Shown: one piece after another, positions 5,300 through 63,788 of the stretch
Position numbering within the stretch: the stretch's first letter is position 1
How the letters are laid out: every line of letters starts with the position of its first letter
DNA from: an uncultured virus (IMG/VR IMGVR_UViG_3300017970_000189)
Taxonomy: Duplodnaviria > Heunggongvirae > Uroviricota > Caudoviricetes
Reading direction: 5' to 3' (one strand)
Length of the DNA: 64,000 bases
Virus record (IMG/VR): IMGVR_UViG_3300017970_000189
Program-made: the position numbers and the translations under genes
The notes under the pieces: generated by a model
The model's input: the letters and a program-made list of their open reading frames with translations, nothing else
Told to the model about the DNA's origin: nothing
Databases searched by the model: none

Positions 5300-5539
5300 A
5301 TGGCCCGGAGCTTCTTCCAACCCGCTTTTTTCACCCCCAGGATCGGCGCAAGCACCTCAAAAAGCCTGATTCAGCAGGCGACCGGTTTCATCCCAGGAAG
5401 TCCAACAGCCACCACCGCTCCCCCTCTCCAGGCTCCCGTCGAAGAAAACACGATCCTGGGGATGCCTCCCCTGGCCGCGCTCCTGGGAGGCACTGCGATC
5501 CTAGGCACCATCGTGGCCCTGGCCCTGGGCCACAAATAG
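5300..5539 (+). CDS. Small C-terminally anchored membrane protein (isolated plus-strand gene in the minus block)
   Basis: Pro/Thr linker then hydrophobic tail PPLAALLGGTAILGTIVALALGHK; TATACT lies 6 nt upstream of the ATG. Confidence 0.65.
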   Translation: MARSFFQPAFFTPRIGASTSKSLIQQATGFIPGSPTATTAPPLQAPVEENTILGMPPLAALLGGTAILGTIVALALGHK

Positions 5540-7678
5540 TTTTTCCTGGGACGTGACGAAGTTCTCCCACTCGCCCATTTCTTCGATGCCCTTCGCCCTC
5601 ATCAAGCGCGAAGCCAGAATGATCGCATCCCGCTCCTGGTACTTCCCCAGCCAATGGAGCACGTCAGCGGTCTTCTGCAGCTTTTCCCAAAGCTTTTCTC
5701 CCATGGTCTCTCCTTTCCTCGCCTCGAAACGATTTCGCGCTTTTCGACCGGCACAAAGGACAAATGCGAGGTTCCTCTTTGGATCTGCGTGTCCAGTCGA
5801 AGCCGCAACCATGATCATTGCACTTCCACCGATATACTTTCACCTCTCACCTTTTGAAAAATGGCGCTATACACTCATTCCAAAAGTGATCAGGTCCAAC
5901 GTAAGTTGACCTTTCGACCAAAGCCTGTAGCCTTTTCCAATCCTCCTTGTGGTAATCGCCACTCTTTGCATCACCCCAGCATTTATGGAAAAGGTGATAG
6001 GCTTCTCGCTTTTCCGCAATAGACAGCTCCTTCGGGTCATTCATATTCACCTTATGGTAGATTGGCGCGAATCTGCCAGACGGCTGGCTTCATTGAACCC
6101 TGAGATATAGGCTTCCCTTAGCGCAGCGACAAAGTGCTCCTGGCTCATCGTCACAAAATTGGATTCCATCTTCGTGTTCTGAGCGATCACTTTTGCTACT
6201 CGTACTGCCTCGTCGCTTGCTGTCATCATCTTGGAACCTCTTATTAACCAATCGGATGCCAACCTGGCGGGTATTCAATCGAAACATGGGGTTTCCCACG
6301 CTCGTCTTTGTACCGATCGAGTTCGATATGCCACCAACCCAACAGTGAATTCGGATTGGGGCAAGTGCAGGTCTTGCATTCGAAATGAACTCGCTCTGGA
6401 AGCAGCTCCCGCGTTTCCGAACCGACAACCGTCCCCGTCAAGTCCCCCCTCTTGACCCGCATTCCAATAGGAGGTGGATCCCACGGAGCGAACACCGCCT
6501 CCGGCCAATGCGTTTTGTAGTCACCGCATTTTTCAAACATCTTTTCTTGAAGCGTCATGGCTCCCTCCCTTTCAGTGAATCTCACCCTTTTGCCGAAAAG
6601 TGAGATCCAGGCATCTCCGTCCCAAAGGCCTTTCTCCAGGTGATTTTTGCCGCCTCATCATTCGCCCTGAGCAATTGAATATCATGGAATCGGAACGGCC
6701 TCTCGTCATCAGGATCGGGACATCCCGAGGCACATTCCCAGAACAGCGTCTCCACATCCACGCTCCGGTCACTCCGGCGGTAGCACGACACCGCAGTCCT
6801 GATCATCACAGGCACACCGCAAAGGGGGCAATCCGGGGGATTGTAATCTTTCATGGAAGCTTCTCTCCGCAGTAGGGGCAGTACCAGATGGTCACAATGT
6901 ACTCACTCCGGACGCCGATCACCCACATCTCATAATCTGAATCATAAACCGGCAATCCTTGAGAGCCCTCAAGACCCGAAAGATCTTTATTTGGACAATC
7001 GTGAATCTTGATAGGATCCCAAGGAATCGTCGGGTAGAACTGATCCGGCGCTGGCCCGCTCCAAACACGATGGGGACTTTCCGTCCAGACTCCCTCCATC
7101 GTCTGATAGAGATCGCATCCCTTACAGAAAAGTTTCCGATCCTGAGGATTGCTAAAAACCTCTAAAACAGAAGAGCAGCACCGCGGGCACTTCAGCACTT
7201 CGGTCATCATTTCATCGTCTCCGTATTTAGCGACCCAAGACAAAATGCTCGCGATGGTGAGCACAACAGTCTCCGCCGCAGGGGTTTCGTGACAATCTCC
7301 ATTCTCCTTTATGCTGCCATACCCGGATTCCGGTATGTTTTTCGGAGAGATCCTTGACCATATTGGCAATTCTCCTGGGCATTTTCATTTTACTTCCCCC
7401 CCCTTATTGGCGTCCGCTTGCTTCGACAGGAATGAATGAGCCTTCCAGTCCGAAACATACTCCAACTCATACCCGCCGGGATACTTTTTCCGGTATTCCT
7501 CATGCTTGCTCGTGCTGCCATCGACGACCCCCATGTCCCACTGACCCCAACCTTCGTTGCTGGAGATATGGCCGGTGATCTCCTCTCCATCTTCGGCTAC
7601 GGCAAGATAAAGACAGTCGCCTTCGGGATTCGGACGAACTGGGAATACGAAAATCTTTGACATCATCTCCCCCTCCCC

Positions 7679-8023
7679 TTAAGCGAATTCCTTGTCCGCC
7701 TTGTCGGCTTCCAGCCAGGTGATCGGCTTTCCCAATTTCACCGCATGACGAAGCTCGTTCCGAGTCGAGTCCCCGATATATCCCCCGATGTTGATCACGC
7801 GGACCTCGTCGGCCATCGCCACCTTGTGCAGGTAAAGGTCGTCGATGACCTTCTTGATCTTATCGCCCTCCCGTTCCGCGCCGTGAGAAAAAGCGACCGG
7901 GCTGTTCAGGACGTTCCAGTGGATGACGAGGATCCCGAGCTTGGTCAAGCGCCAGGCCTCGTCCAGCATCTCCCCGGTAAAGCGCGTGGATCCGCAAAGT
8001 GTGATGATCTTCGGCTTTTTCAT
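7679..8023 (-). CDS. Nucleoside 2-deoxyribosyltransferase-like (phage) protein
   Basis: ITLCGSTRF...HKVAMADEVRVINIGGYIGDSTRNE pattern. Confidence 0.55.
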   Translation of the reverse strand: MKKPKIITLCGSTRFTGEMLDEAWRLTKLGILVIHWNVLNSPVAFSHGAEREGDKIKKVIDDLYLHKVAMADEVRVINIGGYIGDSTRNELRHAVKLGKPITWLEADKADKEFA

Positions 8024-8269
8024 CCTTCGATGTACCCCAGCTCAAACCAACGCTCGATAATCCGGCCAACCGCCACGGGAAGCGGATCCGAGACCATACC
8101 GCGGGCAATCAGATCCTTGGCAATCTTAATAGCCTCCGTCATCACTTGATCGACTTCCTGTTCCGATGGCATCACTTCCCTCCCTTGGTCTTCACGCAGC
8201 GTTTGCACCGGCATTGGCAGCCCGGGAGATTGCACCTTCTCCGGCTGCAATGTCCGCTTTCAAGCCTGT

Positions 8270-8563
8270 TCATTTGGGCATCACCACGGGATCCGGGATC
8301 GGATGGCATACCCCCCGCTCCATCTCGCTCAGCACGCTCGGCTGCATCCGCCGGCGCTTCGCCTCCTCCCGGAGCGACATCCCCCTCGCCTGCCGGTTTT
8401 CCTTCATCTTCTTCCCGAGCGGCACCCAGGCCTTTGCCATCTCCTCGGGAACCTCTCCCGTCCCATGACAGGTGATGCACGGGATCGTGATCGGTTTCAG
8501 GCCGGGGCATCCAAAACCGCTGAGCTGCTTCGATCCCTTGCAGTCCGGACAGATGATGTTCAT
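8270..8563 (-). CDS. DnaJ-type zinc finger fused to XRE-like HTH
   Basis: CPDCKGS...CITCHGTG repeats followed by RQARGMSLREEAKRRRMQPSVLSEMERG. Confidence 0.6.
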   Translation of the reverse strand: MNIICPDCKGSKQLSGFGCPGLKPITIPCITCHGTGEVPEEMAKAWVPLGKKMKENRQARGMSLREEAKRRRMQPSVLSEMERGVCHPIPDPVVMPK

Positions 8564-11500
8564 TACTTTTCAGCCTCTTTCTTTTTTCGATCCTTATCGA
8601 TCAGGTTGACGGCATCAGCAAAACCCATTCCCCCGTGTTTCAGTCTACAGCCGTCGTGCAAGACTCTGTAGTAATCGCGATCATCCTCGGCATGGATGAG
8701 ATTGTCATACAATTCTTCAATGAGAGCCCGGTCCTTGGGTTCCGGGGTCCTATGGATGAGATCCTGGACTTTCCTCCCGTACTCACAGACCGGACACTTG
8801 CATTTCACTTAGTATTTCCTTTCGTTGGTCCCTGCTTACCAAGGCACAAAGGGCAGCGCAGCATATGCCACAAGTAATAGACCAAACAAACAGACCAAAC
8901 AATCGCGAGCCCTATTGCAAATGCGTACCCAAACGTCATGAATCCTCCGCGCGGTTTTCGAGGTGCAGCCCACATTCGAGGGCTGCGGCCAATCCCTGAC
9001 AGAACCCGCGAAGGTGTGCCGTTTTGAATCGCTCCTCAACTCGCTCAAATGATTCCAATATCCAGCGGGCTGCAGCTTCGCTTGTCGCCTTTTCCTGAGG
9101 CGTCAGCGTGCGGGTAGGCTTGGATACCGGATCTCTTCTTTGAGGCATCTGCGACACCTTCTCAGTTTGATCGCCCCGCCTATCTGGAAGATCCATTTCC
9201 ACTCCCAATCGTGCTTTTTGAAATAGTTTGTACACACGTAATAGCTCAAACCGCTTCTTGTTTTGAGGGCCACCGCTCCCAGTAATCCACCGCGCCCTTC
9301 AGCACCTTTGGCATGAACCTGATCTCTCCAAGGCCCACCGGGATCGTTGCTGTCTGCCCATCAGCGAAGCGCAGCGGGGCTCGAATTGGTCTGGCGTCGT
9401 CGCCATCTCGCCAGTCGAGCGTCCACCCATTCGGAACCTCCAGCAGAAGGCAGTTGCCCACGTTGCGAATCGGCATCCATGGGTGTTTCGGTACTCGCAT
9501 AAACGTTCCTACCTCTTCGTCTTTTCTAGAATAGCGATTGCTTTCTGACGAAGTTCCTCGGGTTGGCCCGCACGTTCGTCAACGATCTCGTTGAGGATCC
9601 AGCACCGAAGGGTCTGGTACTGATAAGCCAAGTCCTCGATGATCGGCTCCGGCCTGTTTTCAGGATGTGTCATTGCGTTCATCCATGAATCCAACCTAAG
9701 ATCTCCAGTACCATTCCCGAGAAGCGCATCCACCACCGCTTTCGAGGGCTCGCCTCCAGGTAGGCGTAGAAGGCGTCCCACTCCTCTTGTGTGTGGCGGC
9801 CCTTCACGAACTCAACCATCCAGGGCTCCGGTGCTTCCCACTGCGCCATAGTAATCAATCCCGTCTACAAATCGGATCCCGACAATGCTCGGCGTGGCAG
9901 CTCGGGCACCAGACATAGACGCCGCTCGACGTTATCGAGTGGTGCGGTCCGATACCGTAGCATCGATTGAGCCTCCCACCGCACAGCGGGCAAAGCCCAC
10001 GGATCAGCCGCCAAAGCTCAACAAAAAATGCTTTCATAAATACTAAAATTCCAGATCCTCTTTTTCGACGCGCTCGATGAATTGCTGCACGATGAAATTA
10101 AAATCGTTGTCGTGCTCTTTGAGGTATTTGATCGCAAGACGCAGATCCGTTCGGAGTCGCTGCTGATCGCAGACGATCTTGTCTAAAAACTGACAGGCGT
10201 CGATCTCGGTCTCTCTTGAGACTGGCCCCGGAACAGTCCAGCGCCTCCCGGTCATGACGAAATAAGCCTCGACCGGATCGAGGCCCCCGCGTTCGGCCAG
10301 TCGTTCTAACGTCTGCTGGTGATTCTCCAGCGCGTGACCCTCGTATGGGGCGATGGCGTCCCAAGGGATCGACGATGGGCAGGGAGCAGGTGTCCCTTGA
10401 TAGCCTACCATGATCGGAAACCGCTTCATCATTCGTATCTCGCTCAATCAAGAAAGCGGAAACGGACGAAGGCGACACCGACGACAACGGGAGTCTCGAA
10501 TCCACCTATTCTTCGGGAACCGCTCACCAAGAATCTCCCACTCATGTCCAACGATCCAGCACCAAACTCCAACAATCCAGCACCCAACGCGCCTCATGGT
10601 AATCCCTTAGGTGCATCCGACCAAGCCAGCAAGCAATGGCGGGGATGTAACCGTTCCCGGCCGTCTTCCCAAAGGACCTGCACTGTCCGATCAAGCTCCG
10701 GATCCGAAAAATCGTCATGGACGACAAGCCCGTAGTACGGATTGAAGCGATCCGCGCCGCGAGCCGCCAGGCCGACCAACATGACCTCTTCTCCGGGCTC
10801 AAGTTTTCTATTCGTCATAGCCCGTCTTCACTGGTATCGAAATCTACCGAACTTTCTTGGTCGGGATTGCTGGTTTTCTGAGCACGAATCTTTCCGGCCA
10901 GCCTGTATAAGGTTTGATGGCCAAATCCCTCGCAGAAGCCGTTCAGATGCCGCTTAGGGCCTTCCTTACCGCAGCAGAACGACTTCTCAACGCACTTCTC
11001 GATAATCTTAGCCGCGGCTTCCAGGCCGTTATTAAAGCCGCGATCTTTTTGGGCGTTCCCGGATGTCATGATTTTCCCTCACGATTGGGGTCCCAAGCGG
11101 GTTCAATCTTCAGCACTCGGAAGTACGGGTCTTTCGGGAATAATCCCTCGCGTAATACTTCAACCTGGTACCGGGCATCCTGGGCCGTGTAGGCATAGAG
11201 GTATTGAATATCCCGTTTGCACCCGCCGGAATCAGAGTCCATCCTGTAGAACTCCACAGCATAGAAGTTAGCGTTCGTCATACGGCTCAATCAGAGAATT
11301 TGTGGTTGCGAATTCTAGTCTCCAGTACCGCCGGATCTACGAAACCAATTCCTGATGCGCCACCAGAGCGATTCCTTTGGAGGTGGCCTTGGAACCCAGC
11401 CTCCTTCAACCCTCATCCAGCTTGAGGGGTCAGCCCCTTTGAAGGGCCCCCATGTTGAGAACCCTCCACACTCCTTGTTGACGCAGACATTTGTGACTCT

Positions 11501-30945: not shown

Positions 30946-32388
30946 ATGAACGTCTCCCAGGGCCGCCACGCCTTCTGGAGCGTTCCCCGGCGGCCCTTCC
31001 TCACAAACCGCCCCGTCCGCACCGTCCCCCTCAGCCTCGGCCGCCAGTTCGTCGGCTACCCCAATCCCTTCCTCGGCCAGGATCAGCCCAGCCCCGTGGC
31101 GCCCTCCCCGCTCCCGGCCAATCGCCTAGATGCCCTCACGATCCCGGAAATCCAAAACCGCATCCTGATCGCCGCTCCCATCCAGAGGATGCTCACCGCT
31201 CAGGCTACCGGGAAGCAATCCAACGTCAGTCTGACCGTCCCCCTGGATCTCCTCAACGCCGTTCTCCAGAATTCGCAGAAGACTCTTCCCACACTGACAT
31301 CCGATCAGATCACCGCCTTGACCGCGATCTCCCAAAACCCCACCCAGGATGAAATCTCAGATCTCGCCATCATCGACGCCTTCTTCGGCACCGATGCGCT
31401 CACTCCCGCTTTGTGCAAACTCCTCCAAAACCCGGGAGATTCTGCCAACTTCCTGGATCGGGCGGAAAATTCCAGAGGAGGGGCATATTATGGGAATTTC
31501 TGGTTAGACGTCACCCCCGCCGACATCATCGCGGGATGGCTCTTCTACTCCGGCACGATCTCGAGCGGCAGCCAATCCCACTATTGGGATGTCACCCAGT
31601 CGAACACCACTCCCGATGAGCGAAACGCCATCATGACCAACCCCTTCTTCTGCAGCCCCCCGGCCAGCTACCCAGACATCTTCTACTGGGGCCCGAAAGG
31701 AAACTACGGCGCTTGGTTCTCCCTTGATGCCACTCAAACCTGGGGCGCCCTCAAGATGCAAGTTCAAAACGCCATCACCATCATGGACGTGCTCGCCGGC
31801 TATCCTTTCCCTCCTCCGATCGACCAGTACCCGGGCACGTTCTGGTCGAAGGAAATGGCGGGGATCCAGCAGATCATGAATATCGGCGTCCTGGCCAATC
31901 CCCAGGCCGTCGACCTCTGGGTCACTCTCGCCACGGTCCAGGATTACAGTGCCATGGTCACCCAGATCGAAACCATTCTGAAGAAGAAAGCCAAGGAACA
32001 AAAACGAAAAGCCATTATGGATGGGATCGGGCTCGCCATCGCGAGCATCGTCGCGGCCTACGTCGCCCCCGCCATCATTGCTGCGGCCATCACCGTCATC
32101 AAGACGGCCGTCACGACGTACATGGAAATCGAGCAGCGCAAAGAGGCTGCTCAGAACCTGGAGGACACTTCGAAGCTATTCGCCAAGGACGCTCCCGCCT
32201 TCTCTCAGAAAGTCAGCGATGCGGCGAATACGCTCGATGCCGCAAGCGCCGCCGAACAAGCCTCTGCACCTCCCTCTCCCGCCATCCAGGCAGCCATCGA
32301 CGAAGTCCCCGGAGGCGGGATCAGTCCCCTCGTTCCAGTAGGCGGGATTGCCGCGGCAGGTCTCGCGGTCCTCTTTCTCTTCAAATGA
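30946..32388 (+). CDS. 480-aa membrane protein with FLGQ leader, internal hydrophobic segment and C-terminal TM anchor
   Basis: NPFLGQDQ; IMDGIGLAIASIVAAYVAPAIIAAAITVI; tail SPLVPVGGIAAAGLAVLFLFK. Confidence 0.8.
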   Translation: MNVSQGRHAFWSVPRRPFLTNRPVRTVPLSLGRQFVGYPNPFLGQDQPSPVAPSPLPANRLDALTIPEIQNRILIAAPIQRMLTAQATGKQSNVSLTVPLDLLNAVLQNSQKTLPTLTSDQITALTAISQNPTQDEISDLAIIDAFFGTDALTPALCKLLQNPGDSANFLDRAENSRGGAYYGNFWLDVTPADIIAGWLFYSGTISSGSQSHYWDVTQSNTTPDERNAIMTNPFFCSPPASYPDIFYWGPKGNYGAWFSLDATQTWGALKMQVQNAITIMDVLAGYPFPPPIDQYPGTFWSKEMAGIQQIMNIGVLANPQAVDLWVTLATVQDYSAMVTQIETILKKKAKEQKRKAIMDGIGLAIASIVAAYVAPAIIAAAITVIKTAVTTYMEIEQRKEAAQNLEDTSKLFAKDAPAFSQKVSDAANTLDAASAAEQASAPPSPAIQAAIDEVPGGGISPLVPVGGIAAAGLAVLFLFK

Positions 32389-38971: not shown

Positions 38972-39364
38972 ATGCTGGCCTACCCGGTTCTCAACCTTCC
39001 CCGTCGGTACCTCGGTCAGGCGGCGCCGCCCCCTCAAAGGTACATGCCGACGGCGACCGACTGCGCCAGCCTTCCGGACTTCCAGAAGGCCCTCGATAAC
39101 GCCTCCCAGCGGATCGCGTACTACGAGAAGGCCATGCAGGCGGCCACGGCGGCCAACGACCAGACCGGCATCGATGCGGCGAGCGCCGGATCGGATCTCG
39201 CCAACCGGGACTGGAATACCTGGTCGGCCAAGGTCAAATCCTGCCAAGCGGGGGCCGGAAAGGGCCCGGTTTCGACCTCGGTGGTCGGCCCGCTTCCCAT
39301 CGCGGCGGGCATCGGTGTGGCCGCCATCGTGGGCCTCTTCGCCACCGGCGTCATCAAAATCTAG
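38972..39364 (+). CDS. LGQ-leader helical-hairpin protein with C-terminal TM anchor
   Basis: RRYLGQAA; Cys pair flanking a helical segment; tail [33 protein letters not shown]. Confidence 0.8.
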   Translation: MLAYPVLNLPRRYLGQAAPPPQRYMPTATDCASLPDFQKALDNASQRIAYYEKAMQAATAANDQTGIDAASAGSDLANRDWNTWSAKVKSCQAGAGKGPVSTSVVGPLPIAAGIGVAAIVGLFATGVIKI

Positions 39365-41863: not shown

Positions 41864-42403
41864 TTATCCTCGAGCGACCACGACGACGAGCGCAACAAGG
41901 GCTGTAGCACCGATCCCGATCAGAATAGGAGTCGAGGTATCTTCCGGAGGAGTTCTCGCGCCGGATGGGCTCCCTGGCGGTCCCGCGGGGCTTCCAGGAG
42001 ACGAGGCCGCCTGAACCGGAGCACTGGGAACCGGCTTCCCCGTATGATTGGTCATGATCACGTACATCCGGTTGACCGCCTGGATCCAGTTCTGGGCAGC
42101 GGTCAGATCATCCTGGGAAAAAGGGGCATTCGGATTGCTGGTGAGCGCGTCATTCAGCCCTTCGGCAGCGGATCCGTACTTGGTATCGTCCTGGGAGAGC
42201 AGCGTCCAATTGTCATAGTCACTTCCCAAATCAGCCTGCAAATTGGGATGGTTCTTCTTCCATTCCTTGATGATCTCGTATTGATCGACGGCCTGGGAAA
42301 GGCTGACGGCGAATTTCTGAACCGCATCCGGGGAAAGCGGCTGCCCCTGATCCTGCCCCATGAAGGGGTTTGTGGAGAATCCCAGGGAAAAAATCGTCCG
42401 CAT
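41864..42403 (-). CDS. MGQ-leader, tail-anchored helical protein (paralog of 42405 and 55238)
   Basis: MRTIFSLGF...PFMGQD; shared N(H)PNxQxxLGxD...W...M..H core; C-terminal TM. Confidence 0.8.
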   Translation of the reverse strand: MRTIFSLGFSTNPFMGQDQGQPLSPDAVQKFAVSLSQAVDQYEIIKEWKKNHPNLQADLGSDYDNWTLLSQDDTKYGSAAEGLNDALTSNPNAPFSQDDLTAAQNWIQAVNRMYVIMTNHTGKPVPSAPVQAASSPGSPAGPPGSPSGARTPPEDTSTPILIGIGATALVALVVVVARG

Positions 42404-42404
42404 T

Positions 42405-42929
42405 CTAACTCAGGACGTAAACGAGCAGCGCGACTGCTGCCACGCCGCCCACGGCCAGGACGACCGGACTCACCGTTGGACCTGAAGGGGGGGTCACCCC
42501 GGCCTTGGCGGCCGTAGCCGGCTGATGAGCCTGCATGAGCTTGAAGGCCTGGTCGATGAGGAGGATCCAGCTATTCGAATCGTTCCATTCCTGGCCCGTC
42601 AACGGCCAGGAAGTCCCCGGAGCGCTCAGGCGCGTCTGGACAGCAAGCGCCGTATCGCTATAGGAATCCGCCTGACCCAAGCTGTCGTTGAATTTCGCGA
42701 GATCCGGGCCCAGAAGCGTCTGCCAATTGGCGTTCTGTTTGAAGGCAGCAATCGCCTTGTTCTCCTCCGCCGCGCGATTGATATTGGCGAGCAGGCTGTC
42801 CCGATCGCCCTTCTGAAGCGTCATCGTGGCCAAGGATGCCGCATCTTGACCGAGGCGATACGCCGGACGATACGGAGAGAGCCCGAACGGGCTCGTTCCG
42901 ACAAAACCCATCGTAAAAAGCGTCTTCAT
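42405..42929 (-). CDS. LGQ-leader, tail-anchored helical protein
   Basis: MKTLFTMGF...[14 protein letters not shown] core; C-terminal TM. Confidence 0.8.
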   Translation of the reverse strand: MKTLFTMGFVGTSPFGLSPYRPAYRLGQDAASLATMTLQKGDRDSLLANINRAAEENKAIAAFKQNANWQTLLGPDLAKFNDSLGQADSYSDTALAVQTRLSAPGTSWPLTGQEWNDSNSWILLIDQAFKLMQAHQPATAAKAGVTPPSGPTVSPVVLAVGGVAAVALLVYVLS

Positions 42930-48711: not shown

Positions 48712-49365
48712 TCAGAATTTACGGGAGAGCAGCACTCCCGCGATGACCGCAATCGAAATTCCTCCGACTATCCATGCTGCAGTTGGAATCTCCGGTGCCT
48801 TTGCAGGAGCGCCCGGCGCAGCCGGAGCCAAGGGAGTTGCAGGACTCGAAGGCGCCCGAGCGGGCGCAGGAGCCACCACGGTTGAAGATGGAGGCGCTGG
48901 AGCAGGAGCTGGAGATGTCGGAACGGGAGCTGGCACCGGAGCAGCCTGAGCTGGGGCAGAAACTGGAGCAGCCTGGGCAGCCGCCTGCGGAAACGTGCTC
49001 GCGATCGCCGAAAGGAGATCGTTCTTACTCAGAATCCCTTCCAGCCGGTTCATCTCCTGGCCGCTCTGAAGAAACAGCGTCGTTGGAATCGACTGAATGT
49101 TAAATTGGGAGACCAGGCTTGGATTTTCATCTACGTTCGCCGTCACCATGAGGATGCCTCCAGGAGGCGACGAGGAGACATCCTCGAAGACGGGCTTATA
49201 CTTCATGCAGGGAACGCAGGTCGAGCTCCAGAAATCCACGATGGCGAGCGGCGCGCTCAAGACCTGTCCGGAATTGTCGTCCGTCACACCGGTCCCCAGG
49301 AACCTGCGCCGCGGACGATAAGACCGGGCGAGAGGCACCTGTCCCAACCAGGGAGACCCAAGCAT
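48712..49365 (-). CDS. Thioredoxin-domain protein with LGQ leader, Pro/Ala linker and C-terminal TM anchor
   Basis: IVDFWSSTCVPC...VDENP.L...F.IQSIPT; PWLGQ; tail AAWIVGGISIAVIAGVLLSRKF. Confidence 0.88.
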   Translation of the reverse strand: MLGSPWLGQVPLARSYRPRRRFLGTGVTDDNSGQVLSAPLAIVDFWSSTCVPCMKYKPVFEDVSSSPPGGILMVTANVDENPSLVSQFNIQSIPTTLFLQSGQEMNRLEGILSKNDLLSAIASTFPQAAAQAAPVSAPAQAAPVPAPVPTSPAPAPAPPSSTVVAPAPARAPSSPATPLAPAAPGAPAKAPEIPTAAWIVGGISIAVIAGVLLSRKF

Positions 49366-53557: not shown

Positions 53558-55227
53558 CAGGTCAGCATGACCATCGCGTATCCGGCAGCCCCGGCTCCTC
53601 CCGCGGTCCCGTTCTGGAATCCCAGTCCAGCGGCTCCTCCGGCCCCACCGGTGGCGGTCACCGTCGGCCCAGGAGGTCCCCAGTAGAGCGCGACCCCGCC
53701 AGGACCGCCGCCGCCACCACCGCCACCGCCGGCATCGCTGGAAGCCCCGTTAAAGGCGTTCGAACCCGCTCCGCCAGCACCGCCGTTTGCAGAGATCACC
53801 CACGACGGGCTTCCAGCGCCGAGCGCAACCAAGGCTACGGAACCGCCACCGCCTCCTCCGCCGCCTCCCCCTGAAGTCGCAAACGTCACCCCGGCGCCGG
53901 AAGAGTTCCCTCCAGCGCCGCCCGCCCCGCCGGCAAAACCTGGAATCAGGGAAGCCGCGCCGCCGCCACCGCCTCCGCCTCCCTGGTCAAAACCGGAACT
54001 TCCGGAATTTCCTGCGCCACCCCCGCCGCCAGCGCCGGATGCCGCTGCAAAAGCCTTGAAATCGTTGGCTCCGGTCCAATTTTGCGTTGGAGCCTGGACG
54101 ACCGGAAGATTGAGAAGATCGAACCATGCAGGCGCAAACCGGATCCCGATGGAGAGCGAATTGAAAGTAGGGCTAATTCCAGTTCCGCCGGCGCCACCGG
54201 CACCACCGGTATTCGTACTGGGATTGACTCCGGGGGACGCATTTGTTACGCCGATTCCATTCCCGTACATCAGAACAGCCCCGCTTGCTGAAGTTCCAGC
54301 GCCACCTCCGCCGTCACCGGACGCTCCTTGGGCCCCAGGAACCGCCGCTGCACCCGCGGCTCCATTCGCACTGATGAATCCCGGATCTCCGTTCGGAGCA
54401 TTGGCCGCAAAAACCCAGACGGATCCGTATCCCAGACCTCCCCCGCCGCCGGCGCCCGGTCCACCGGACACGCCGCGGCTGCCAACACCTCCAGTACCAG
54501 GAGTCGAAACCGAGTAGTTCGTCGCCGTGATCATCCCGCCGCCCAAAGTAAGCGTGCCGGAAACAAATATGGCGACCAGAGCATCGTTGGCAAACTGGGT
54601 CAAGGTGTGTCCGGCAAGATTCAAGTTCAAGTATTGGACAGTCCATTGATATTGGACGAGAGTGGTGTTCGCCACGAGGGTGAGCGAGCCATCGATGCCG
54701 CCGCCGAAGAAGTAGGAGGCGGCTCCTCCGCCGCTTTGGCCCTGGGTTCCGGTGGCTCCCTGGGCTCCGGTGGTTCCCTGGGCACCCGTGACCCCCTGCG
54801 ACCCGGCTCCGGTTTGTCCCTGAATGCCGGTCTGGCCCTGGGGTCCTTGAATCCCGGTCGCTCCGGGAGTTCCTGCGCCGGTCTGGCCCTGGATACCGGT
54901 CTGACCTTGAGGCCCTTGAACGCCCGTCGATCCTTGCTCGCCGGTCGTCGGTCCCGTCACCCCCTGAGGCCCGGTCACCCCCTGTGGGCCCGTGCCGCCA
55001 CCGGCAACTCCCGTGACGCCTTGAGCGCCAGGCGCTCCGGGCGTGCCCGCACCGCCGCCTCCGCTGACGAAGGGAAAGCCAGCCAGAGCGGAACGACCGA
55101 TGACCGGGTTGATCTTAGGTAGGAGCTCCTGGAGCTCCATGAAATCCTGGCCGGTAATGGGCGTGTCGGAATAGAGGATCCGACCGTCACTAAACTGCAC
55201 GAGACCGTTGCCCAGGATCTGCGCCAA
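53557..55227 (-). CDS. Collagen-like fibre protein 6 (glycine-rich head type D')
   Basis: Start moved to TTG 55227 to match the paralogs; head closely similar to gene 5. Confidence 0.9.
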
Positions 55228-55237
55228 GGCCCCCCCT

Positions 55238-55939
55238 CTAGGATCTGAAGGCGAAGATGCCAAGAGTGATGGCGGCCAGCGCCCCGACGCCTATGAGAAC
55301 CGGACTGGGGCCTCCTCCCGCCGCAGGCTTGGCCGCCGCGGCCGCCGGAGCTTTCGCGCCTGCTGGCGCGGCCGGCGCGGGATGGCTCGTCATGAGGGCA
55401 TACTGGCCGTTGATCGCCTCCAGCCAGTTGGCGAGCGAAGCCTGCTCATCCGTCGTCATGAACCAGGCATCGCTGTTGTTCGTCTGGAGCCGCTGTTGGA
55501 GCGTGGTCACCGAATCATAGTTGTTGTTCGCCTCGTCCTGGAAGGCATTCCACCGGCCCAGATCCGGCCCGAGCAGGGTCTGGTAATCCGGATGGTTGTT
55601 CACCCAGGTCGCGACGGCGTTCATCTTGTCCTGGGCGGTCGCGATGGTCGACAGCGTCTTCGAACGGTCCACCGACTGGCCCAGCCTTCCCCCCAGGGGA
55701 TAGACCGGCTCGATCAGGGTCTCGCCATAATTCGGATAGGCGCATTCCGGCCCATAGGTTCCCGGACCGCAGAAGATCTCGCTACCAGCCCAGCCGCCGC
55801 GAGGGCCTCCGCGGGGACCGCCGCCTCCGCCGCCACCCCCGCGTCCCAAGCTGGATGGATGCGGCCAGAAGGCTTCCGGATGGCCGCCCAGGCCGAAGAC
55901 ATCCTGGTGCGCGAACCCCATGGTGAACAGCGTTTTCAT
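55238..55939 (-). CDS. LGQ-leader, tail-anchored helical protein (paralog of 41864 and 42405)
   Basis: Start moved to ATG 55939 (MKTLFTMGF, as in 42405); [14 protein letters not shown] core; C-terminal TM. Confidence 0.8.
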
Positions 55940-55953: not shown

Positions 55954-56541
55954 TCAGGCGCTCTTCGGCAGCCCTTTTCCCATGACCGATCCCATCACTC
56001 CACGCGCGCGCCAGGCCGCGTTTCTTTTTTTGAATTCCCGATACGCCTTTTCGAGGCCCCCGTGATCGACCCCATCCTGGAGAAACTTGTCGACCTCGAT
56101 CCACAGGTTCGGATTGAGATGGACGATCCCCGTTGCCAGTCCCTTCAGGCGGTACATCGCGCTTCCCACGGGGAAATCGTCGAAGATCACTCCCGGAGGA
56201 AGGATGGGCTTGATCTCCTCTTCGAGAGCCTCGCGATCCTCTCGAGTCAACCCAGGAGATTTATCCACAACGTCCATCTGCATGGCGATCGGGACCAGAT
56301 CCTCCCGGGTGATCACGTTTTTGAAGATCCTCACCACTGGGCCGATCCGGTGAAGAACCTCCCGGGCCCAGGCGGCGGAAGCCGATGTCAAGAGACACAG
56401 ATCCCCGTACACGGCGAGCTTTTCGAGGAATTGGTTTACCCCCGGTCGCACGATGATGTCGATCGGCTCATCCGTCACCGGATCAAGCACCGGCGCGGCG
56501 AGCACGTTGTCCATGTCCGTGTAGATGGGCTTTCGGATCAT
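55954..56541 (-). CDS. HAD-superfamily phosphatase, FCP1/NIF-like
   Basis: TDMDNVL (DxD) motif; VRPGVNQFL; LLTSA; IFDD. Confidence 0.75.
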   Translation of the reverse strand: MIRKPIYTDMDNVLAAPVLDPVTDEPIDIIVRPGVNQFLEKLAVYGDLCLLTSASAAWAREVLHRIGPVVRIFKNVITREDLVPIAMQMDVVDKSPGLTREDREALEEEIKPILPPGVIFDDFPVGSAMYRLKGLATGIVHLNPNLWIEVDKFLQDGVDHGGLEKAYREFKKRNAAWRARGVMGSVMGKGLPKSA

Positions 56542-56709: not shown

Positions 56710-56722
56710 CCTTTTTACGCCC

Positions 56723-57183: not shown

Positions 57184-57903
57184 TCACACTTCCGGCGATT
57201 CCTCGTGATAAAGGAGCCCGAATTCGTCCCGATCGTTCAGCCCGAACAGGGTAAGTCCCGGAAGGTCTTCCGGCATGGCCCAAATGAGCGCCCGCTCGAT
57301 CTCATAGAGGACCGGATTGAGCAGCTCCCTCCAAGGATCCCCACCCTCCCTTTTGATCCTCTCCACATCTCCCACCGGGATCCCGAGGAACCGCGCAACT
57401 TCCTCCTCCGCGCCTTCCTCGCGTTGCGCGATCATGATGAGCGGAAGCTCCGCCTGAGGGCCCCCTCGTTCCGTCTCTTCTATCGCCCGCCTGAATTCCG
57501 GATCCTGCCGGCCTTCCCGGACCATCTCCCACAGGCTGGGAAGGTCAAAAAGACCGCTCAACCATTCCTCAGACGGCAATTCAGGAGGCCTTCTTAAAAT
57601 AGGCGGGGGTGGCGCGGCCCGACGAACAGGAGGCGCTCTTCTCGCGGGCTCCGCGGGCGGCGGCACTCGTGCAGGAGCTTCGCGAACCGGAAAAGCTTCC
57701 AGGATTCCGAAGCCTGTGGGTTCCTCGGCCTTTCGAATGACTTCGAAGGCGCCGGGAGCCTGAATCATCCCCGTCTCCTCCGGAGGACGGAGCACATCAA
57801 ACACATCCGGATTCAAGGCAGGCGGTCGCGCGGGATGGTAGAACTCCACGAGCCCTTTTGGCTCTTCCTCCTTCTTCCGTTTCAAAAAGTCAAAAAGAGC
57901 CAC
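57184..57903 (-). CDS. Pro-rich protein with one copy of a repeated ~125-aa C-terminal domain
   Basis: FDL..LW...R...FLGIP...W.ELL.P...PEDLPG...Y.E. Confidence 0.75.
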   Translation of the reverse strand: MALFDFLKRKKEEEPKGLVEFYHPARPPALNPDVFDVLRPPEETGMIQAPGAFEVIRKAEEPTGFGILEAFPVREAPARVPPPAEPARRAPPVRRAAPPPPILRRPPELPSEEWLSGLFDLPSLWEMVREGRQDPEFRRAIEETERGGPQAELPLIMIAQREEGAEEEVARFLGIPVGDVERIKREGGDPWRELLNPVLYEIERALIWAMPEDLPGLTLFGLNDRDEFGLLYHEESPEV

Positions 57904-57906
57904 GCG

Positions 57907-58722
57907 CTACTCCATGTAGCCCATCCAGAACGATCCATCTTTGGCGTCCTGGAAACCCACGAGGCCCGGGATGTCATTCGGCCGTTCCTTTTCGAAGGCA
58001 TAGGAAAGCTCGTCCATGAAGGGGATGAGGAGCTGATCCCAGATGGCCTGTCCGGGATACTTCGCCACCTCCGACGGCGGGATCCGGAAATACCGGATGA
58101 GATCTGCCGCGCGGGCCGGATCGTTCCGCTGGGCCTGGGAGATCTTGATGAGCGCGATCGGCTGCCCCGGCCTGAATCTCGAATCGGCCTTGTAATGCCG
58201 GATCGTATTCCAGATCGCATCCATGTCGAACCAGTCCCGGGGATCAAGAAGCGGCGGCCCCTCCGGCCGCCTGGGCGGCCGGGCCCCACTGGGAGCGATT
58301 CCCCCGGGACGCGGACGCGGGGCACCGCCGCCTCGCGGCACCTCGCGCGCCTCCGAAGGACGCCGCTCCTCGCCCTGGTAATAGAGATAGCTCATCGGAG
58401 GAGGCGGAAGAATCGTCCAGACTTGTTTCGGCGTCGGATCCCTCCATTCCGATTCCGGCACGACGAATTGCATGAGCTCCGGAACGTATTCCTCTTCTCC
58501 TCCGTAGGTCTCATGAGGCGCGGCCGCTGGAGGAAGCGCCGGCCGTTCCGCCGCAAACCCTCCCCGCCAGGGCGACGCCGTGGGAGGCCCCGGACGCCGC
58601 AGACTGACAGCCCCTTCCGGAGCTTCTCTCGCGGCCTCTTCCTCCCTGGGGTCCCTTTCCCGGGTCTCCCCGGGACGCGGGAATTTTCTCCCTCTTTCGG
58701 GCTCCGGAACACGATAAGGCAT
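57907..58722 (-). CDS. Pro/Arg-rich protein with one copy of the same domain
   Basis: FDM..IW...R...YFRIP...W.QLL.P...PNDIPG...Y.E. Confidence 0.75.
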   Translation of the reverse strand: MPYRVPEPERGRKFPRPGETRERDPREEEAAREAPEGAVSLRRPGPPTASPWRGGFAAERPALPPAAAPHETYGGEEEYVPELMQFVVPESEWRDPTPKQVWTILPPPPMSYLYYQGEERRPSEAREVPRGGGAPRPRPGGIAPSGARPPRRPEGPPLLDPRDWFDMDAIWNTIRHYKADSRFRPGQPIALIKISQAQRNDPARAADLIRYFRIPPSEVAKYPGQAIWDQLLIPFMDELSYAFEKERPNDIPGLVGFQDAKDGSFWMGYME

Positions 58723-58732
58723 AAGATTCTCC

Positions 58733-60790
58733 CTACTCGATGTATTTTAGTAAGAATTCCTGTTCATCGTCATCCCAAGAAAACTCGAACCATCCGGGAA
58801 GGCTCTTCGGTTTCAGGGCATTCATTGCCTGGTCCACGACCGCGAAATAAGGATACAGCACTTCACTCCACAAGTCATTCTGCGCTTCATCAAAGGGCGC
58901 GCTCTTGAAAAATACATCGAAGATTTCCGTAGGAATCCCAAAATAGGTCGAAAGCTGGGCATAGAGCTCGGGGCCTTCCTCCGCAACCGGCTCCACTTCC
59001 ATCACCGCATCTATTGCGTTCTCCCTGGCCACCTCAATCTCGTGCTGAAAACCCTCGCTCTTCTGATTCCTCTTCATCGATCTCCAGAATTCCTCCCCAA
59101 ACATCTGTTCTACCCAAGGTACCACTTCGTCCACCTCCGGCAGCTTCCCCCAGATCTTCCGGATCTCCCGCTTCCGTGTCTTTTCCAGCTCCTTTTCTCT
59201 CTGCTCCCGTTCTCCTTGCTCCCGCCGTTCCTTTTCAGCCTGGACTTTCTCCTCCCCCCGAATCCGATTTTTCTCTTCATCCGAAATCGGCTCGTAATAA
59301 ACGATCCCGTAGACATCCCCATCCCATTTCCGGTCCCAGTCCAGAAAAAACCTGCCTATGAGATCCGGAGGCTTAAGAGCATCGAACGCCGCCTCGATCG
59401 CCTCTGAAACTGGGAAAATTACATCCCTGTCGAAATCTTCCCAAGTCTCTTCCCAATACCCATTCTCCTCTGCCTCTTCCTCCATCTTCTTGACATAAGG
59501 TTCGAGGACCTTATAAGGAATCCCAAGCTCCTTCGAAAAATTATGCCAGTCGCTTCCATCCCAAGTCTGAATCCCGATCGAAGCCTCGATCCCTGTGTCC
59601 TCCTCATGCGCCAGATTGTGGAGATGCCAGGGATCCCGGCGCGCCTCTCGAACATGATTCCAGACATCCTCAAGAACGAAATTTTCCCTGATCCATTCCT
59701 CCCAGCTCTTCTGACTGGAATGGACCGACATTTTCAGCTTTCTGGGCTTCCGTTTTTCCTCCCCGGGCTCCTCTTCAGGCTCCCCAGCAAAGACACCGAA
59801 GGCAGGCGCCTCCGGCCTCGCATAAGGCGCAATTCCTTGGGGAGGCAGCACATCGAAGCTTTCCAGCTCCATTGAAGGCTTGGCGATCAGGCCTCCCGCT
59901 TCCGGAACGAACGTCTCGAATGCAGGCTCCGCCGGAAGCATCGGAGGAACCTGGAAAGGCGCGAGTTCCTGAGGAGCTGCTTCCAAGGTCTTGAAGGGAT
60001 CGAAGGCCCCTGCAGGCGCAAGAGTCCCTGGAATTTCCGGAACGACGAGTCCGCTGGGAGGCCGCGGGGGCGCTTCCGGCGCCAAGATCCCAAAGACATC
60101 CTGCGTCTCGACAGGCACGAGTCCACGGGGCGCCGGAGGGGCGGGGGGCGGCGTCGGTCCGAGCACCTCCATAAAACTCACCGGCGCGCCTTCGATGATC
60201 TTTTCTTCCCGGGGAGCAGGCACGATGATCGCCTGCGCGGCCGCTTCCGGAGGCACTTGGATGGATGGGGGAGTCTCTTCGAAGATTTCCACGGGCTTGG
60301 GAAAGATGCTCCTCGGGGCTTTCCGGCGCTCGACCTCGGGAATGGGCGTCACCTCTACCTTCGGCTTCCGGCGGAAGATATCCCAGAGGCTTCTCCTGGG
60401 CTCGGCTGCCTTCTTCTTCCGCTCCGCCTCCACCCAGGCCGCATGCTCCTTCGTCAGCCAGATCGGCGGCTTCCCCCTGAGCGGCTGCTCCTCCCGGGGA
60501 TCGAAAATACTCGCTCCCAGCTCCCCGCCTCCACCGGGCCTCAAGATGTCCGACACATGCTCCGATCCGAATTCCACCGGCTCCCCGGATTCCAATACCC
60601 CCCGGTACCACCCCGGCCCCAGCACATCGTCCACCTCAGTCCAGATCGCCTGGGGATCCATTTCTTCCGATAAAAGCATCAGCTCCGCGAGATCCCCCGG
60701 TTCCAGCCCCTCCCGAACCCGTGCCGGCGGAGCCTCGAATCCGGGATAATCCCACTCCATCCGCTCGACGTTTCCCAGCACCGCTCTCAC
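58733..60790 (-). CDS. 685-aa Pro/Glu-rich protein with two copies of the same domain
   Basis: LGIP...PPDLIG...YYE and FGIP...PKSLPG...YIE. Confidence 0.8.
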   Translation of the reverse strand: MRAVLGNVERMEWDYPGFEAPPARVREGLEPGDLAELMLLSEEMDPQAIWTEVDDVLGPGWYRGVLESGEPVEFGSEHVSDILRPGGGGELGASIFDPREEQPLRGKPPIWLTKEHAAWVEAERKKKAAEPRRSLWDIFRRKPKVEVTPIPEVERRKAPRSIFPKPVEIFEETPPSIQVPPEAAAQAIIVPAPREEKIIEGAPVSFMEVLGPTPPPAPPAPRGLVPVETQDVFGILAPEAPPRPPSGLVVPEIPGTLAPAGAFDPFKTLEAAPQELAPFQVPPMLPAEPAFETFVPEAGGLIAKPSMELESFDVLPPQGIAPYARPEAPAFGVFAGEPEEEPGEEKRKPRKLKMSVHSSQKSWEEWIRENFVLEDVWNHVREARRDPWHLHNLAHEEDTGIEASIGIQTWDGSDWHNFSKELGIPYKVLEPYVKKMEEEAEENGYWEETWEDFDRDVIFPVSEAIEAAFDALKPPDLIGRFFLDWDRKWDGDVYGIVYYEPISDEEKNRIRGEEKVQAEKERREQGEREQREKELEKTRKREIRKIWGKLPEVDEVVPWVEQMFGEEFWRSMKRNQKSEGFQHEIEVARENAIDAVMEVEPVAEEGPELYAQLSTYFGIPTEIFDVFFKSAPFDEAQNDLWSEVLYPYFAVVDQAMNALKPKSLPGWFEFSWDDDEQEFLLKYIE

Positions 60791-62000: not shown

Positions 62001-62006
62001 CCTTCA

Positions 62007-62246: not shown

Positions 62247-62564
62247 CTACTTCTTGACCGGAATCAGGCAAGCTCCGGCGAACGCCAGAAGCGCGACCGC
62301 TCCCACGATGTACTTCGTGGCCGGGCTCGCGGGCGCCTTCGCAGGAGCCGGAGGCGGCTGAATTGGCGCGGCGGCCGCCGGAGCGGGTGCGGGAGCCGGA
62401 GCCGGCGCGGGCGCGGGCGGAGCCGCTGGCGCAGCCGCCGCGGCGCCCTGGTCCGGCGCCGGAGGCGTGGCCTGCGCCTGATAGATGAAAGCCGGTCCAG
62501 AAGGATTGACCGAAGACCAGGGCTGGCCGATCACCTTCACTTCCTGAGGATGCGGGAATTGCAT
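62247..62564 (-). CDS. Pro/Ala-rich tail-anchored protein (paralog of 62586)
   Basis: QEVKVIGQ; QAQATPP; tail YIVGAVALLAFAGACLIPVKK. Confidence 0.75.
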   Translation of the reverse strand: MQFPHPQEVKVIGQPWSSVNPSGPAFIYQAQATPPAPDQGAAAAAPAAPPAPAPAPAPAPAPAAAAPIQPPPAPAKAPASPATKYIVGAVALLAFAGACLIPVKK

Positions 62565-62585
62565 GGCTCTCTCCTTTTTCGAGGA

Positions 62586-63140
62586 CTACTTCCAAGGAAT
62601 CAGGACCGCCGCGAGAAGCACCGCAGCGGCGATTCCCCCGGTGATGTACAGCGACTTTGAGCTTCCCACGGCAGCCGGAGCCTTCGGTGCAGGAGCCGGA
62701 GCCGCGCCGCCGCCAGTGGGCACGTTCGGCGCGCAGCCGGTCGGCGTCTGCGTGGTCCCCGCGGGGCACGGACCTACGAACTCATCCGGCGCAGGAGCCG
62801 TAGGAGGCGTCGCCTGAGCCTGAAAGACCGTCTCATAGGTCTGGTAGCGTCCGGTCTGCCCTTTGCCGGGAGAAATGGCTGGACCCCAGGGAGGAACCCC
62901 ATAGCGGCCGGCCTGCCCCTCGGCTGCATAGACGGCCTCAGCCGTATAAATGGGCTTAGTGCCATACTGAGCGCCCTGGTGCTGAACCGGGACATACGGC
63001 ACTCTTTGCCATGCCCCATTCACATAGATCCTCGTATACATCGGCGGTGGGCCACTTTGTTGGGCCGGGGTCGCAGGCGCCCCCATGCCCACGATTTTCA
63101 CTTCCTGAAACATCGGACTCCACATGACCATCCTCCTCAT
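62586..63140 (-). CDS. Pro/Ala-rich tail-anchored protein
   Basis: QEVKIVGMGA; QAQATPP; CPAGTTQTPTGC loop; tail YITGGIAAAVLLAAVLIPWK. Confidence 0.75.
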   Translation of the reverse strand: MRRMVMWSPMFQEVKIVGMGAPATPAQQSGPPPMYTRIYVNGAWQRVPYVPVQHQGAQYGTKPIYTAEAVYAAEGQAGRYGVPPWGPAISPGKGQTGRYQTYETVFQAQATPPTAPAPDEFVGPCPAGTTQTPTGCAPNVPTGGGAAPAPAPKAPAAVGSSKSLYITGGIAAAVLLAAVLIPWK

Positions 63141-63158
63141 TCCCCGAAGGGCAAAATT

Positions 63159-63497
63159 TTACAGAAGCGCCCGGCGTCCCAGACCCGGCGCGAGCCGGAT
63201 CCCCGCCATCCCGGCCTGCTGCCGCTGACATTGCTGAAGATTGAGCAGGGCCTGCTGGTAATTGGCCTTTGCCGTATTCCAGGCCTGTTCCACGCTATTA
63301 AGCTGCGGAGCCAAGCCGTTCACCGTGTCCGTATCTCCGGCCGCCGTCGCCGCCTTGACCTGGGCGGCGTAATTCGCGAGCTGATTCCCTGCATCATCGA
63401 CATCGGCCTGGGCCGCAGACAGGAGCGCCTCGTAGGCCGCGCATGGCAGATTGGGGATCGCCTGTCCCAGGCCTCCCATGACGAAGATCGTCCGCAT
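63159..63497 (-). CDS. LGQ-leader helical-hairpin protein (similar to 38972..39364, no TM tail)
   Basis: MRTIFVMGGLGQA; AATAAGD turn; WNT; Cys pair. Confidence 0.75.
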   Translation of the reverse strand: MRTIFVMGGLGQAIPNLPCAAYEALLSAAQADVDDAGNQLANYAAQVKAATAAGDTDTVNGLAPQLNSVEQAWNTAKANYQQALLNLQQCQRQQAGMAGIRLAPGLGRRALL

Positions 63498-63506
63498 GGA
63501 GCTCTC

Positions 63507-63788
63507 CTAGAGAATTTTCATGAGAATGATTCCTCCCAGGATCACCGCGCCTCCGATCACGACGGTCTGCGCGGGGATTCCATAGATCTTCCCCGGGACC
63601 TGGACCCCGACGATGGGCACCGTATAAGGCGCCTCCCCCGGGGCCGCATGGACTGGCGGAGCTCCTCCCCCTCCTGCACCCTGCTGGCCGGGCATCTGAT
63701 CCCGCGGCGTGGGAACGAGCGGGGCGATCTGTCCCATCCAGGGGGAAGAGCGCGGTCCCCTGAAATCTCCGACGTACATCGCGTTCAT
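63507..63788 (-). CDS. Small MGQ-leader tail-anchored protein
   Basis: SPWMGQI; tail VVIGGAVILGGIILMKIL. Confidence 0.75.
   Translation of the reverse strand: MNAMYVGDFRGPRSSPWMGQIAPLVPTPRDQMPGQQGAGGGGAPPVHAAPGEAPYTVPIVGVQVPGKIYGIPAQTVVIGGAVILGGIILMKIL

Follow-up and report, generated by a model that had tools for sequence, protein, structure and literature searches.

A short leader ending in [LM]GQ on membrane proteins of an uncultured giant phage: a candidate sorting or processing signal

The stretch of DNA analysed here, 64,000 nucleotides of the uncultured virus recorded in IMG/VR as IMGVR_UViG_3300017970_000189 (Caudoviricetes), is in our reading part of an uncultured giant phage; we refer to the whole of it as the window, or the 64-kb window. 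It encodes a set of membrane proteins that begin with the same kind of leader, a segment predicted to be disordered which ends in the motif [LM]GQ, namely Leu or Met followed by Gly and Gln. The motif is strongly enriched in membrane proteins, is conserved in three protein families and precedes cargo domains that are mostly unrelated to each other. As such, the leader looks like an undescribed sorting or cutting signal, kin to the known leader and propeptide signals.

Leader proteins of the window

The first-pass annotation of this DNA had listed 11 open reading frames (ORFs) with an N-terminus of this kind, and all of them, with the peptides quoted for each, are present in the sequence. Gene calls and helices rest on simple ORF and Kyte-Doolittle (KD) rules made for this analysis. 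The proteins are given below with their length in amino acids (aa), the position of the motif in nucleotides (nt) and that of the C-terminal membrane helix; in the text each is named by the first coordinate of its gene.

30946..32388 (+): 480-aa membrane protein; leader of residues 1-45 ending in NPFLGQ, LGQ at nt 31072-31080; internal helix near residues 360-385; C-terminal helix at nt 32329-32379
38972..39364 (+): 130-aa tail-anchored protein; leader MLAYPVLNLPRRYLGQ, LGQ at nt 39011-39019; helix at nt 39293-39343
41864..42403 (-): 179-aa tail-anchored protein of the MKTLF family; leader MRTIFSLGFSTNPFMGQ, MGQ at nt 42353-42361; helix at nt 41876-41926
42405..42929 (-): 174-aa tail-anchored protein of the MKTLF family; leader of residues 1-28 ending in AYRLGQ, motif at nt 42846-42854; helix at nt 42414-42464
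48712..49365 (-): 217-aa tail-anchored thioredoxin (CVPC); leader MLGSPWLGQ, motif at nt 49339-49347; helix at nt 48727-48777
55238..55939 (-): 233-aa tail-anchored protein of the MKTLF family; LGQ at nt 55676-55684; helix at nt 55250-55300
63159..63497 (-): 112-aa paralogue of 38972; leader MRTIFVMGGLGQ, motif at nt 63462-63470; no membrane helix (KD17 0.61)
63507..63788 (-): 93-aa tail-anchored protein; leader ending in SSPWMGQ, motif at nt 63729-63737; helix at nt 63513-63563
62247..62564 (-): 105-aa tail-anchored protein; variant QEVKVIGQ, motif at nt 62523-62531; (PA)n linker; helix at nt 62262-62312
62586..63140 (-): 184-aa tail-anchored protein, a paralogue of 62247 as judged from its N-terminus; variant FQEVKIVGMGA, motif at nt 63078-63086; helix at nt 62598-62648
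5300..5539 (+): 79-aa tail-anchored protein, a weak member; variant TPRIGA, motif at nt 5342-5350; helix at nt 5471-5521

With the sole exception of 63159, these proteins end in a Pro/Ala stretch followed by a hydrophobic helix (10/11, KD17 2.16-2.93), whereas none of the 11 has an N-terminal hydrophobic core such as a Sec-type signal would have. Four of them begin M[KR]T[IL]Fx[LM]G. On these three points the first-pass annotation was accurate, and the variants it had considered weaker, PRIGAS, VGMGAP and KVIGQP, match the wider core [LMI]-G-x that is found in homologues. In the thioredoxin protein 48712 (Pfam Thioredoxin, E-value 1.1e-16), the leader is directly followed by RRRFLGTG and the anchor is preceded by a long P/A linker. 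The most likely start of 55238 is the ATG at 55939, which begins MKTLFTMGF and has GAGGAAAAAG upstream; its LGQ therefore falls at residues 86-88. Between these two elements, residues ~30-85 of the same protein comprise a Gly/Arg-rich run and a Cys-containing stretch, an insert design that recurs in the distant family members P0044 and P0070.

Leaders range from 7 to 88 residues, with a median of ~25. Many begin with M-[KR]-[TS]-hydrophobic-F-x-[ML]-G-F and terminate in [F/W/R/P]-[LM]-G-[Q]. In composition, they have K+R at 0.10-0.11, D+E at 0.02-0.04 vs 0.10 in the cargo, G at 0.13-0.15 vs 0.06 and F+W+Y+M at 0.19-0.22 vs 0.09-0.10. They are predicted to be intrinsically disordered, next to domains in which the predicted local distance difference test score (pLDDT) reaches 90-98. 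In the AlphaFold2 (AF2) model of the 480-aa protein, residues 1-56 have pLDDT below 50; that of 42405, built on an alignment of 77 sequences hand-picked from 141 matches, assigns 51-54 to residues 1-30 and 96-98 to a three-helix domain (35-134), after which come a disordered linker and a helix at 155-173.

Once leader and anchor are removed, the 31 leader proteins of the window and of the related loci described below fall into 16 cargo groups at the level of BLAST, all of them membrane proteins, either tail-anchored or hairpin. The cargos include the thioredoxin, a three-helix bundle, a 350-aa all-helical domain and others, while the anchors are formed by a Gly-rich membrane helix at the C-terminus, preceded by a Pro/Ala linker; in some proteins a helical hairpin takes its place. 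Hence the proposal that leader and anchor are real modules combined with unrelated cargos withstands scrutiny, but it has to be qualified for the window itself, in which 41864, 42405 and 55238 are paralogues of each other, as are 38972 and 63159.

The largest cargo deserves a separate comment. The family of the 480-aa protein has two invariant Cys (C157 and C236), an invariant Pro cluster of the YPFPPPID type and a well-modelled all-helical domain. Foldseek returned no match to its fold at E<=0.001 in PDB or BFVD, and an Atlas search gave leads of 0.84-0.85 only, to viral hypothetical proteins. On this basis, the protein may represent a new fold or family.

Enrichment and conservation of the motif

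To what extent could such a short motif arise by chance? Among six-frame ATG ORFs of at least 45 aa in the window, [LM]GQ occurs within the first 50 aa in 6 of the 15 that have a C-terminal hydrophobic stretch vs 6 of the 359 that do not (Fisher 1.1e-6), and one of the latter six is the paralogue 63159. None of 20,000 shuffles reached six (mean 0.32). The same association is seen beyond the window, in eight further metagenome contigs (L002-L009) that carry relatives of the 480-aa protein. In these eight independent loci the motif lies within the first 50 residues of 24/46 tail-anchored ORFs vs 15/399 others (p 2.9e-17), and clusters of tail-anchored ORFs surround the 480-aa relatives, mainly in L002, L006, L007 and L009. 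The 15 'others' include several genuine genes whose products have internal helices (L002:5062, L002:7485, L007:9892, L007:2021 and L007:7965). When window and loci are combined, a helix lies downstream in 36/47 ORFs with the motif vs 72/580 (p 5e-21); of the 11 motif ORFs that have no downstream helix, 10 look spurious or due to chance and one is 63159. Because motif ORFs also have internal helices or hairpins, the leader is associated with membrane proteins at large, hairpins included, and not with tail anchors alone. Chance is excluded as the source of the motif. In L002, the 480-aa homologue has an HNH endonuclease gene (8894-9985) directly upstream, which is absent from the window and looks like a mobile insertion.

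Homologues have retained the motif in the three families examined. The family of the 480-aa protein comprises 20 homologues with 33-48% identity, and in an alignment of 19 sequences its leader takes the form GRHxFW...RTVPL...PF[ML]G[Q/E/D]. The orthologue of 38972, L002:5469 (55% identity), carries LPRSLGQ, and the MGQIAPLVP of 63507 is PRMGQLAPLVP in L002:2613. The richest evidence comes from the MKTLF family, for which an exhaustive HMMER search yielded 141 representatives at E<=1e-3. The C-terminal helix is present in 128 of them and [LM]GQ within the first 70 aa in 94, while 80 begin with M[KRNQ][TSN]xF. Column counts were obtained with hmmalign from all 137 members shorter than 400 aa, aligned to the family profile. 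The Gly of the motif is the most informative column across the whole protein, with 126 G, 8 A and 1 S out of 135. It is preceded by L (91), M (39) or I (4), that is 134/135, and followed by Q in 101/135, A in 10 and D in 4; members that do not have Q retain [LMI]G[A/S/D/E/G/V]. Per residue, [LM]GQ occurs at a rate of 0.0092 in the first 90 aa vs 0.00045 later, a difference of ~20-fold, and 11/136 proteins contain two or three copies. The longer forms P0074, P0094, P0111 and P0083 retain [LM]GQ immediately ahead of the helical domain despite an extra upstream Cys domain, which indicates that the motif marks the borders of modules; in two of these four, P0111 and P0083, a second copy lies ahead of the extra domain. 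Three prolines in the linker of this family (positions 140, 143 and 147 of P0002) also belong to the most conserved columns, with 112-121 of ~117-123 occupied, and the 'disordered' linker may hold a specific PxxPxxxP motif.

At the level of DNA, the codons of the motif differ between window genes, and paralogues show synonymous differences. It follows from the former that the motif is conserved as a peptide rather than as a DNA element, and from the latter that selection acts on the peptide. This bears upon the view that there is no signal at all, and that the leader proteins are diverged paralogues of a single tail-anchored ancestor in which both ends were kept for structural reasons, or because gene ends that stay alike promote the recombination of cassettes. 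Several members are indeed paralogous, and hidden Markov model searches merge groups that BLAST separates, as with L007:5022, which resembles P0064. However, the cargos include a bona fide thioredoxin, a 350-aa domain that has no fold match and hairpin proteins with C-terminal beta domains; the synonymous differences within the leader mean that conservation at the DNA level is not the cause; and in the AF2 models the leader is not packed against the domain. We consider common descent alone a very improbable explanation.

Possible functions of the leader

Which of the known N-terminal signals does the leader resemble? It lacks the defining features of all those considered: Sec, Tat, lipoprotein, prepilin, double-glycine, T4-type and clan CE sites. 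Sec signals have an h-region, a hydrophobic run of about 8-15 residues behind a basic n-region, which is absent here, since the maximal KD value over 11 residues reaches 2.0 in 0/31 leaders of window and loci and in 0/92 family representatives, the medians being 0.68 and 0.65. Compared with signal peptidase sites, which have small residues at -1 and -3, position -1 is G, A or S in 135/135 and -2 is L or M, while -3 is mostly P/R/Y/G/S/I and not the usual small residue. As for Tat signals, in which S/T-R-R-x-F-L-K precedes an h-region, RR is present in few leaders only, again with no h-region. Nor is there a lipobox, which reads L-[AS]-[GA]-C and has its Cys at +1: position +1 is Q, A, D or others, C never being listed, whereas true lipobox proteins are found elsewhere, such as L002:15126 with MLFGC. 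The class III leader of type IV prepilins, in which a Gly at -1 is immediately succeeded by a hydrophobic helix with Glu at +5, differs as well, for here G-F lies at residues 8-9 and G-Q comes later, followed by polar or Pro-rich sequence. Double-glycine leaders have GG, GA or GS at -2 and -1 and a nearby ABC exporter with a C39 domain; here position -2 is L, M or I in 134/135, and no C39 or ABC exporter domain was matched in the window and locus ORFs scanned with Pfam. C-terminal sorting signals such as LPXTG, PEP-CTERM, PGF-CTERM and GlyGly-CTERM combine a signature motif, a helix and a basic cluster, and go together with an N-terminal Sec signal and a cognate sortase. Models of these signals (NCBIfam, E<=1) did not match any of the 11 leader proteins, which also have no Sec signal; the only row for LPXTG_anchor was 0.084, below the cut-off, in a 47-aa ORF at 63785-63928.

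Internal proteins of T4 carry a capsid targeting sequence (CTS) that is processed by gp21. The leader is close in layout to this sequence and to the propeptides cut by the prohead proteases of large myoviruses (T4 gp21, phiKZ gp175, SPN3US gp245 with motif AXE), which like it are short N-terminal pieces common to unrelated proteins of one phage. According to the part of PMC10052503 that deals with SPN3US, a propeptide there can have several sites and a variable length, and all sites produce N-terminal propeptides. However, myoviral sites end in Glu (x-x-E, as in L/I-x-E or A/S/G-x-E) whereas the leader ends in [LM]-G-[Q]; the substrates there are soluble head proteins, here membrane-anchored ones, whose cleavage would be by analogy. 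Searches of window and loci with Pfam and PHROGs revealed no gp21/gp175-like protease, and neither such a protease nor capsid or scaffold genes were seen in the 64 kb. The first-pass annotation had invoked the proteases of adenovirus, poxviruses and African swine fever virus (ASFV), which cut after Gly. This analogy turned out to be loose: clan CE enzymes of these viruses recognise (M/L/I)XGG|X, GG|X or AG|X, whereas L, M or I stands before the Gly here, and clan CE proteases (Peptidase_C5/C57/C63, Ulp1) have no match in the window and locus ORFs scanned with Pfam.

Since a disordered end that is better conserved than its cargo is common to unrelated membrane proteins of one clade, we infer that some common factor must read it. 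The reading we favour, with a likelihood somewhat below even, is that the leader is a propeptide or targeting piece and that the factor, acting on the phage's own membrane proteins, is probably an endopeptidase cutting at [LM]G|Q. An endopeptidase site is favoured because the Gly is replaced by Ala or Ser only, because the next position is free, and because of the repeated copies and their location at module borders. The restriction to small residues points to a steric constraint of the S1 type, and together with the variable next residue it fits a cut after Gly, as was first proposed. The enzyme would then have a small S1 pocket accepting Gly, rarely Ala or Ser; the upstream M-K/R-T-x-F-x-M-G-F would serve in targeting or recognition, and removal of the leader would follow the arrival of the protein at a membrane-associated assembly specific to the phage.

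Several observations weigh against this reading. No protease was recognised by Pfam in 107 window ORFs and 70 locus ORFs, nor by searches of PHROGs, nor by NCBIfam on 25 ORFs. The motif matches no known maturation-protease site of phages, and the mature proteins could still carry the leader intact. The starting nonapeptide and the residues around the Gly would suit a pure docking motif equally well. Moreover, the basic C-terminal tails (26/31) and the strongly basic loops of two small hairpin proteins point to an N-out orientation, in which a cytoplasmic assembly protease could not act. An HExxH sequence in the ORF at 40268-40909 was discarded as evidence of a protease, having no family support and being of a kind frequent by chance.

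Docking would imply that the leader is not cleaved, and that [ML]GF, [LM]GQ or both, at the free end of membrane-tethered proteins, bind one putative partner (e.g. capsid, scaffold, chaperone or the shell of a compartment) which gathers the phage membrane proteins or is itself tied to the membrane. A disordered leader that is better conserved than its cargo, with a spacer of variable length between two conserved elements, would agree with this, just as repeated copies would raise avidity; the failure to find a protease in the ORFs scanned points in the same direction. Encapsulin cargo-loading peptides provide a precedent, being short hydrophobic motifs with Gly at a disordered end flanked by Pro/Ala/Gly and portable between cargos. 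They share with the leader a portable, disordered Gly motif, but their consensus differs and the cargos here are membrane proteins; no encapsulin or HK97-fold shell was seen in the window. Against docking, the fact that nothing but Ala or Ser takes the place of the Gly suggests a limit in size more than a backbone turn, and the motif stands at module borders in the longer forms. We regard docking as possible but doubtful.

The orientation just mentioned leads to another explanation, which we judge unlikely even though it has genuine support. The leader might be a non-classical export or insertion signal of proteins with N-out, C-in topology, in which the C-terminal helix acts as stop-transfer and the cut at G|Q occurs on the outer face. 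Short basic C-terminal tails, with K/R in 26/31 and a mean D+E of 0.16, are in line with such a topology, and by the positive-inside rule the basic inter-helix loops of L002:5062 and L007:7965 would put the leader outside. The two invariant Cys of the 480-aa family, the paired Cys of the 38972/63159 family and the CVPC thioredoxin cargo would also agree with export, as would the P/A linkers, which are usual in proteins spanning the periplasm. A -1 residue of G/A/S followed by Q/A/S/D/E resembles signal-peptidase sites, but -3 is F/W/R/P, not small. Furthermore, the leaders have no hydrophobic core (KD11>=2.0 in 0/31 and 0/92), cargos of up to ~350 aa would have to cross with no known signal, and the phage uses ordinary signal or lipoprotein peptides elsewhere (window 14660-15214; L002:15126-15662). 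Basic N-tails in other leader proteins, such as L002:7485, point instead to N-in.

Precedents for individual traits of the leader proteins do exist. The definition of a bacterial tail-anchored protein, which requires a single helix in the last ~30 residues and the absence of an N-terminal signal sequence, describes 10/11 leader proteins in the window and 128/141 representatives of the MKTLF family. The tail-anchored membrane proteins (TAMPs) of PMC3087755 similarly combine a hydrophilic N-terminus with one C-terminal helix; they are reported there in both orientations, including N-out proteins that have no signal peptide, whereas an N-terminal motif common to members, as found here, is not among the features given in the passages of that paper drawn on. 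Tat-dependent tail-anchored proteins, or sortase-type substrates, are also on record, and those covered by the relevant part of PMC10924467 have the same order of leader, cargo, linker, C-terminal helix and basic end. Some leaders even contain a Tat-like RR-x-[FY]-L-G, as in RRYLGQ and RRRFLG, but no leader has an h-region, RR is not general and there is no match to sorting domains. If the cut took place on the outer face, the Gln that it exposes might undergo cyclisation in the manner of the Q-rule of Bacteroidetes, in which signal peptidase I frees an N-terminal Gln that is then cyclised (PMC5837995, in the part concerned with this rule). As described there, the rule shares with the leader a small residue followed by a preferred, not obligatory, Gln, but it involves ordinary Sec signal peptides, and the leaders are not of that kind. 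Ordinary signal peptides by which the host might be judged under this rule are too few here. The window has a G+C content of 52-64%, with a negative GC skew that is steady along its length. Such a G+C content is unusual for Bacteroidetes.

The phage around the leader proteins

The genes of the window are small and tightly packed, with GGAG-type ribosome-binding sites in 35 of the 54 checked. Window proteins match the phage families phrog_26039 (1e-35), phrog_5706 (2e-30) and the MazG-like phrog_4856 (1.5e-29), as well as a Phage_ABA_S domain and a Lar-like protein, and two of them have been recorded from a contig of 426,845 bp. No tRNA genes were detected in the 64 kb, nor were capsid, terminase or portal genes recognised there. 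DNA of this stretch is present in metagenome runs from peat. Phages in GenBank gave no match by megablast (40-64 kb) or by tblastn with two proteins, while scans of the IMG/VR copy with two proteins and alignment A4, and of GTDB representative genomes with the same alignment, found no relative. The degenerate leader pattern had four matches in the IMG/VR copy, none of them real, and 20 in GTDB, none of them relatives; the latter were dismissed as ordinary signal peptides (Bacteroidota and others) or short ORFs. The exact back-translated pattern of MKTLFTMGF had no match in metagenome contigs.

Between several of the leader genes lies a group of fibre genes:

42933-44024, 44144-45313, 47377-48618, 50162-51568, 51668-53353 and 53557-55263 (-): six collagen-like fibre paralogues

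All six start at an upstream TTG behind a GGAG site and have their N-terminus in common. The first-pass annotation had related the [TM]GQD of these proteins to the leader motif, a proposal that we reject. The sequence, at residues 25-27 (37-39 in one), is internal to the conserved N-terminal fibre domain of proteins that have no C-terminal helix and are not membrane proteins; the resemblance is probably a coincidence. The ORF at 49639-50151 has GGQDIFMDF and a C-terminal ending, ...NITIVFTVT, in common with the protein of 50162.

Other genes of the window are also of note. Two encode a Clp_N double repeat with a short unknown tail and no AAA+ module, at 27650-28321 (+, 223 aa) and 35689-36330 (+, 213 aa); their Pfam E-values are 6e-33 and 3e-24, both match phrog_35667 at ~1e-36, and they might function as adaptor decoys or as modules for substrate recognition. 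Auxiliary genes at 23533-24198, 36775-37656, 38357-38887, 55954-56541, 4043-4237 and 25168-25647 encode a MIP aquaporin-like channel, a fatty acid desaturase, a dTDP-4-dehydrorhamnose 3,5-epimerase, a NIF/FCP1-like phosphatase, a ribosome modulation factor-like protein and a MazG-like pyrophosphohydrolase; the epimerase also adjoins the cluster of leader proteins in L006. At 57184-60760 (-) there are three acidic proteins of 194, 271 and 675 aa that have no family match; their similar aromatic/acidic C-termini, e.g. ...FEFSWDDDEQEFLLKYIE and ...DGSFWMGYME, suggest that they may be paralogues.

Full-text literature searches on huge phages together with tail-anchored proteins, on prohead-protease motifs and on phage C-terminal transmembrane or ejection proteins yielded no description of a leader of the kind presented here. 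Should the leader act in sorting or processing, it would constitute a new class of N-terminal signals in prokaryotic viruses, distinct from Sec, Tat, lipoprotein, pilin and T4-type signals, and it would name the whole set of its substrates, which amounts to dozens of membrane proteins in each genome and, for a single cargo family, to 141 sequence clusters. In practical terms, [FWPR]-[LM]-G-Q within ~50 residues of the start, in combination with a membrane helix, offers a handle on an unannotated viral clade of peat, soil and sediment. In biological terms, the question is raised of why a phage of more than 400 kb needs a tagged membrane proteome that includes a membrane-tethered thioredoxin and Cys-paired domains. 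It is conceivable, though we think it quite improbable, that these giant phages build a lipid structure of their own, either a virion membrane, inner or outer, or a membrane-bound compartment within the host, and sort their own membrane proteome into it by means of a two-part leader (M-K/R-T-x-F-x-M-G-F ... [LM]-G|Q) cut by a new, Gly-specific membrane-associated peptidase. If true, this would amount to a pathway of protein sorting, and perhaps to a giant bacterial virus that contains a membrane, for which no counterpart has been described.

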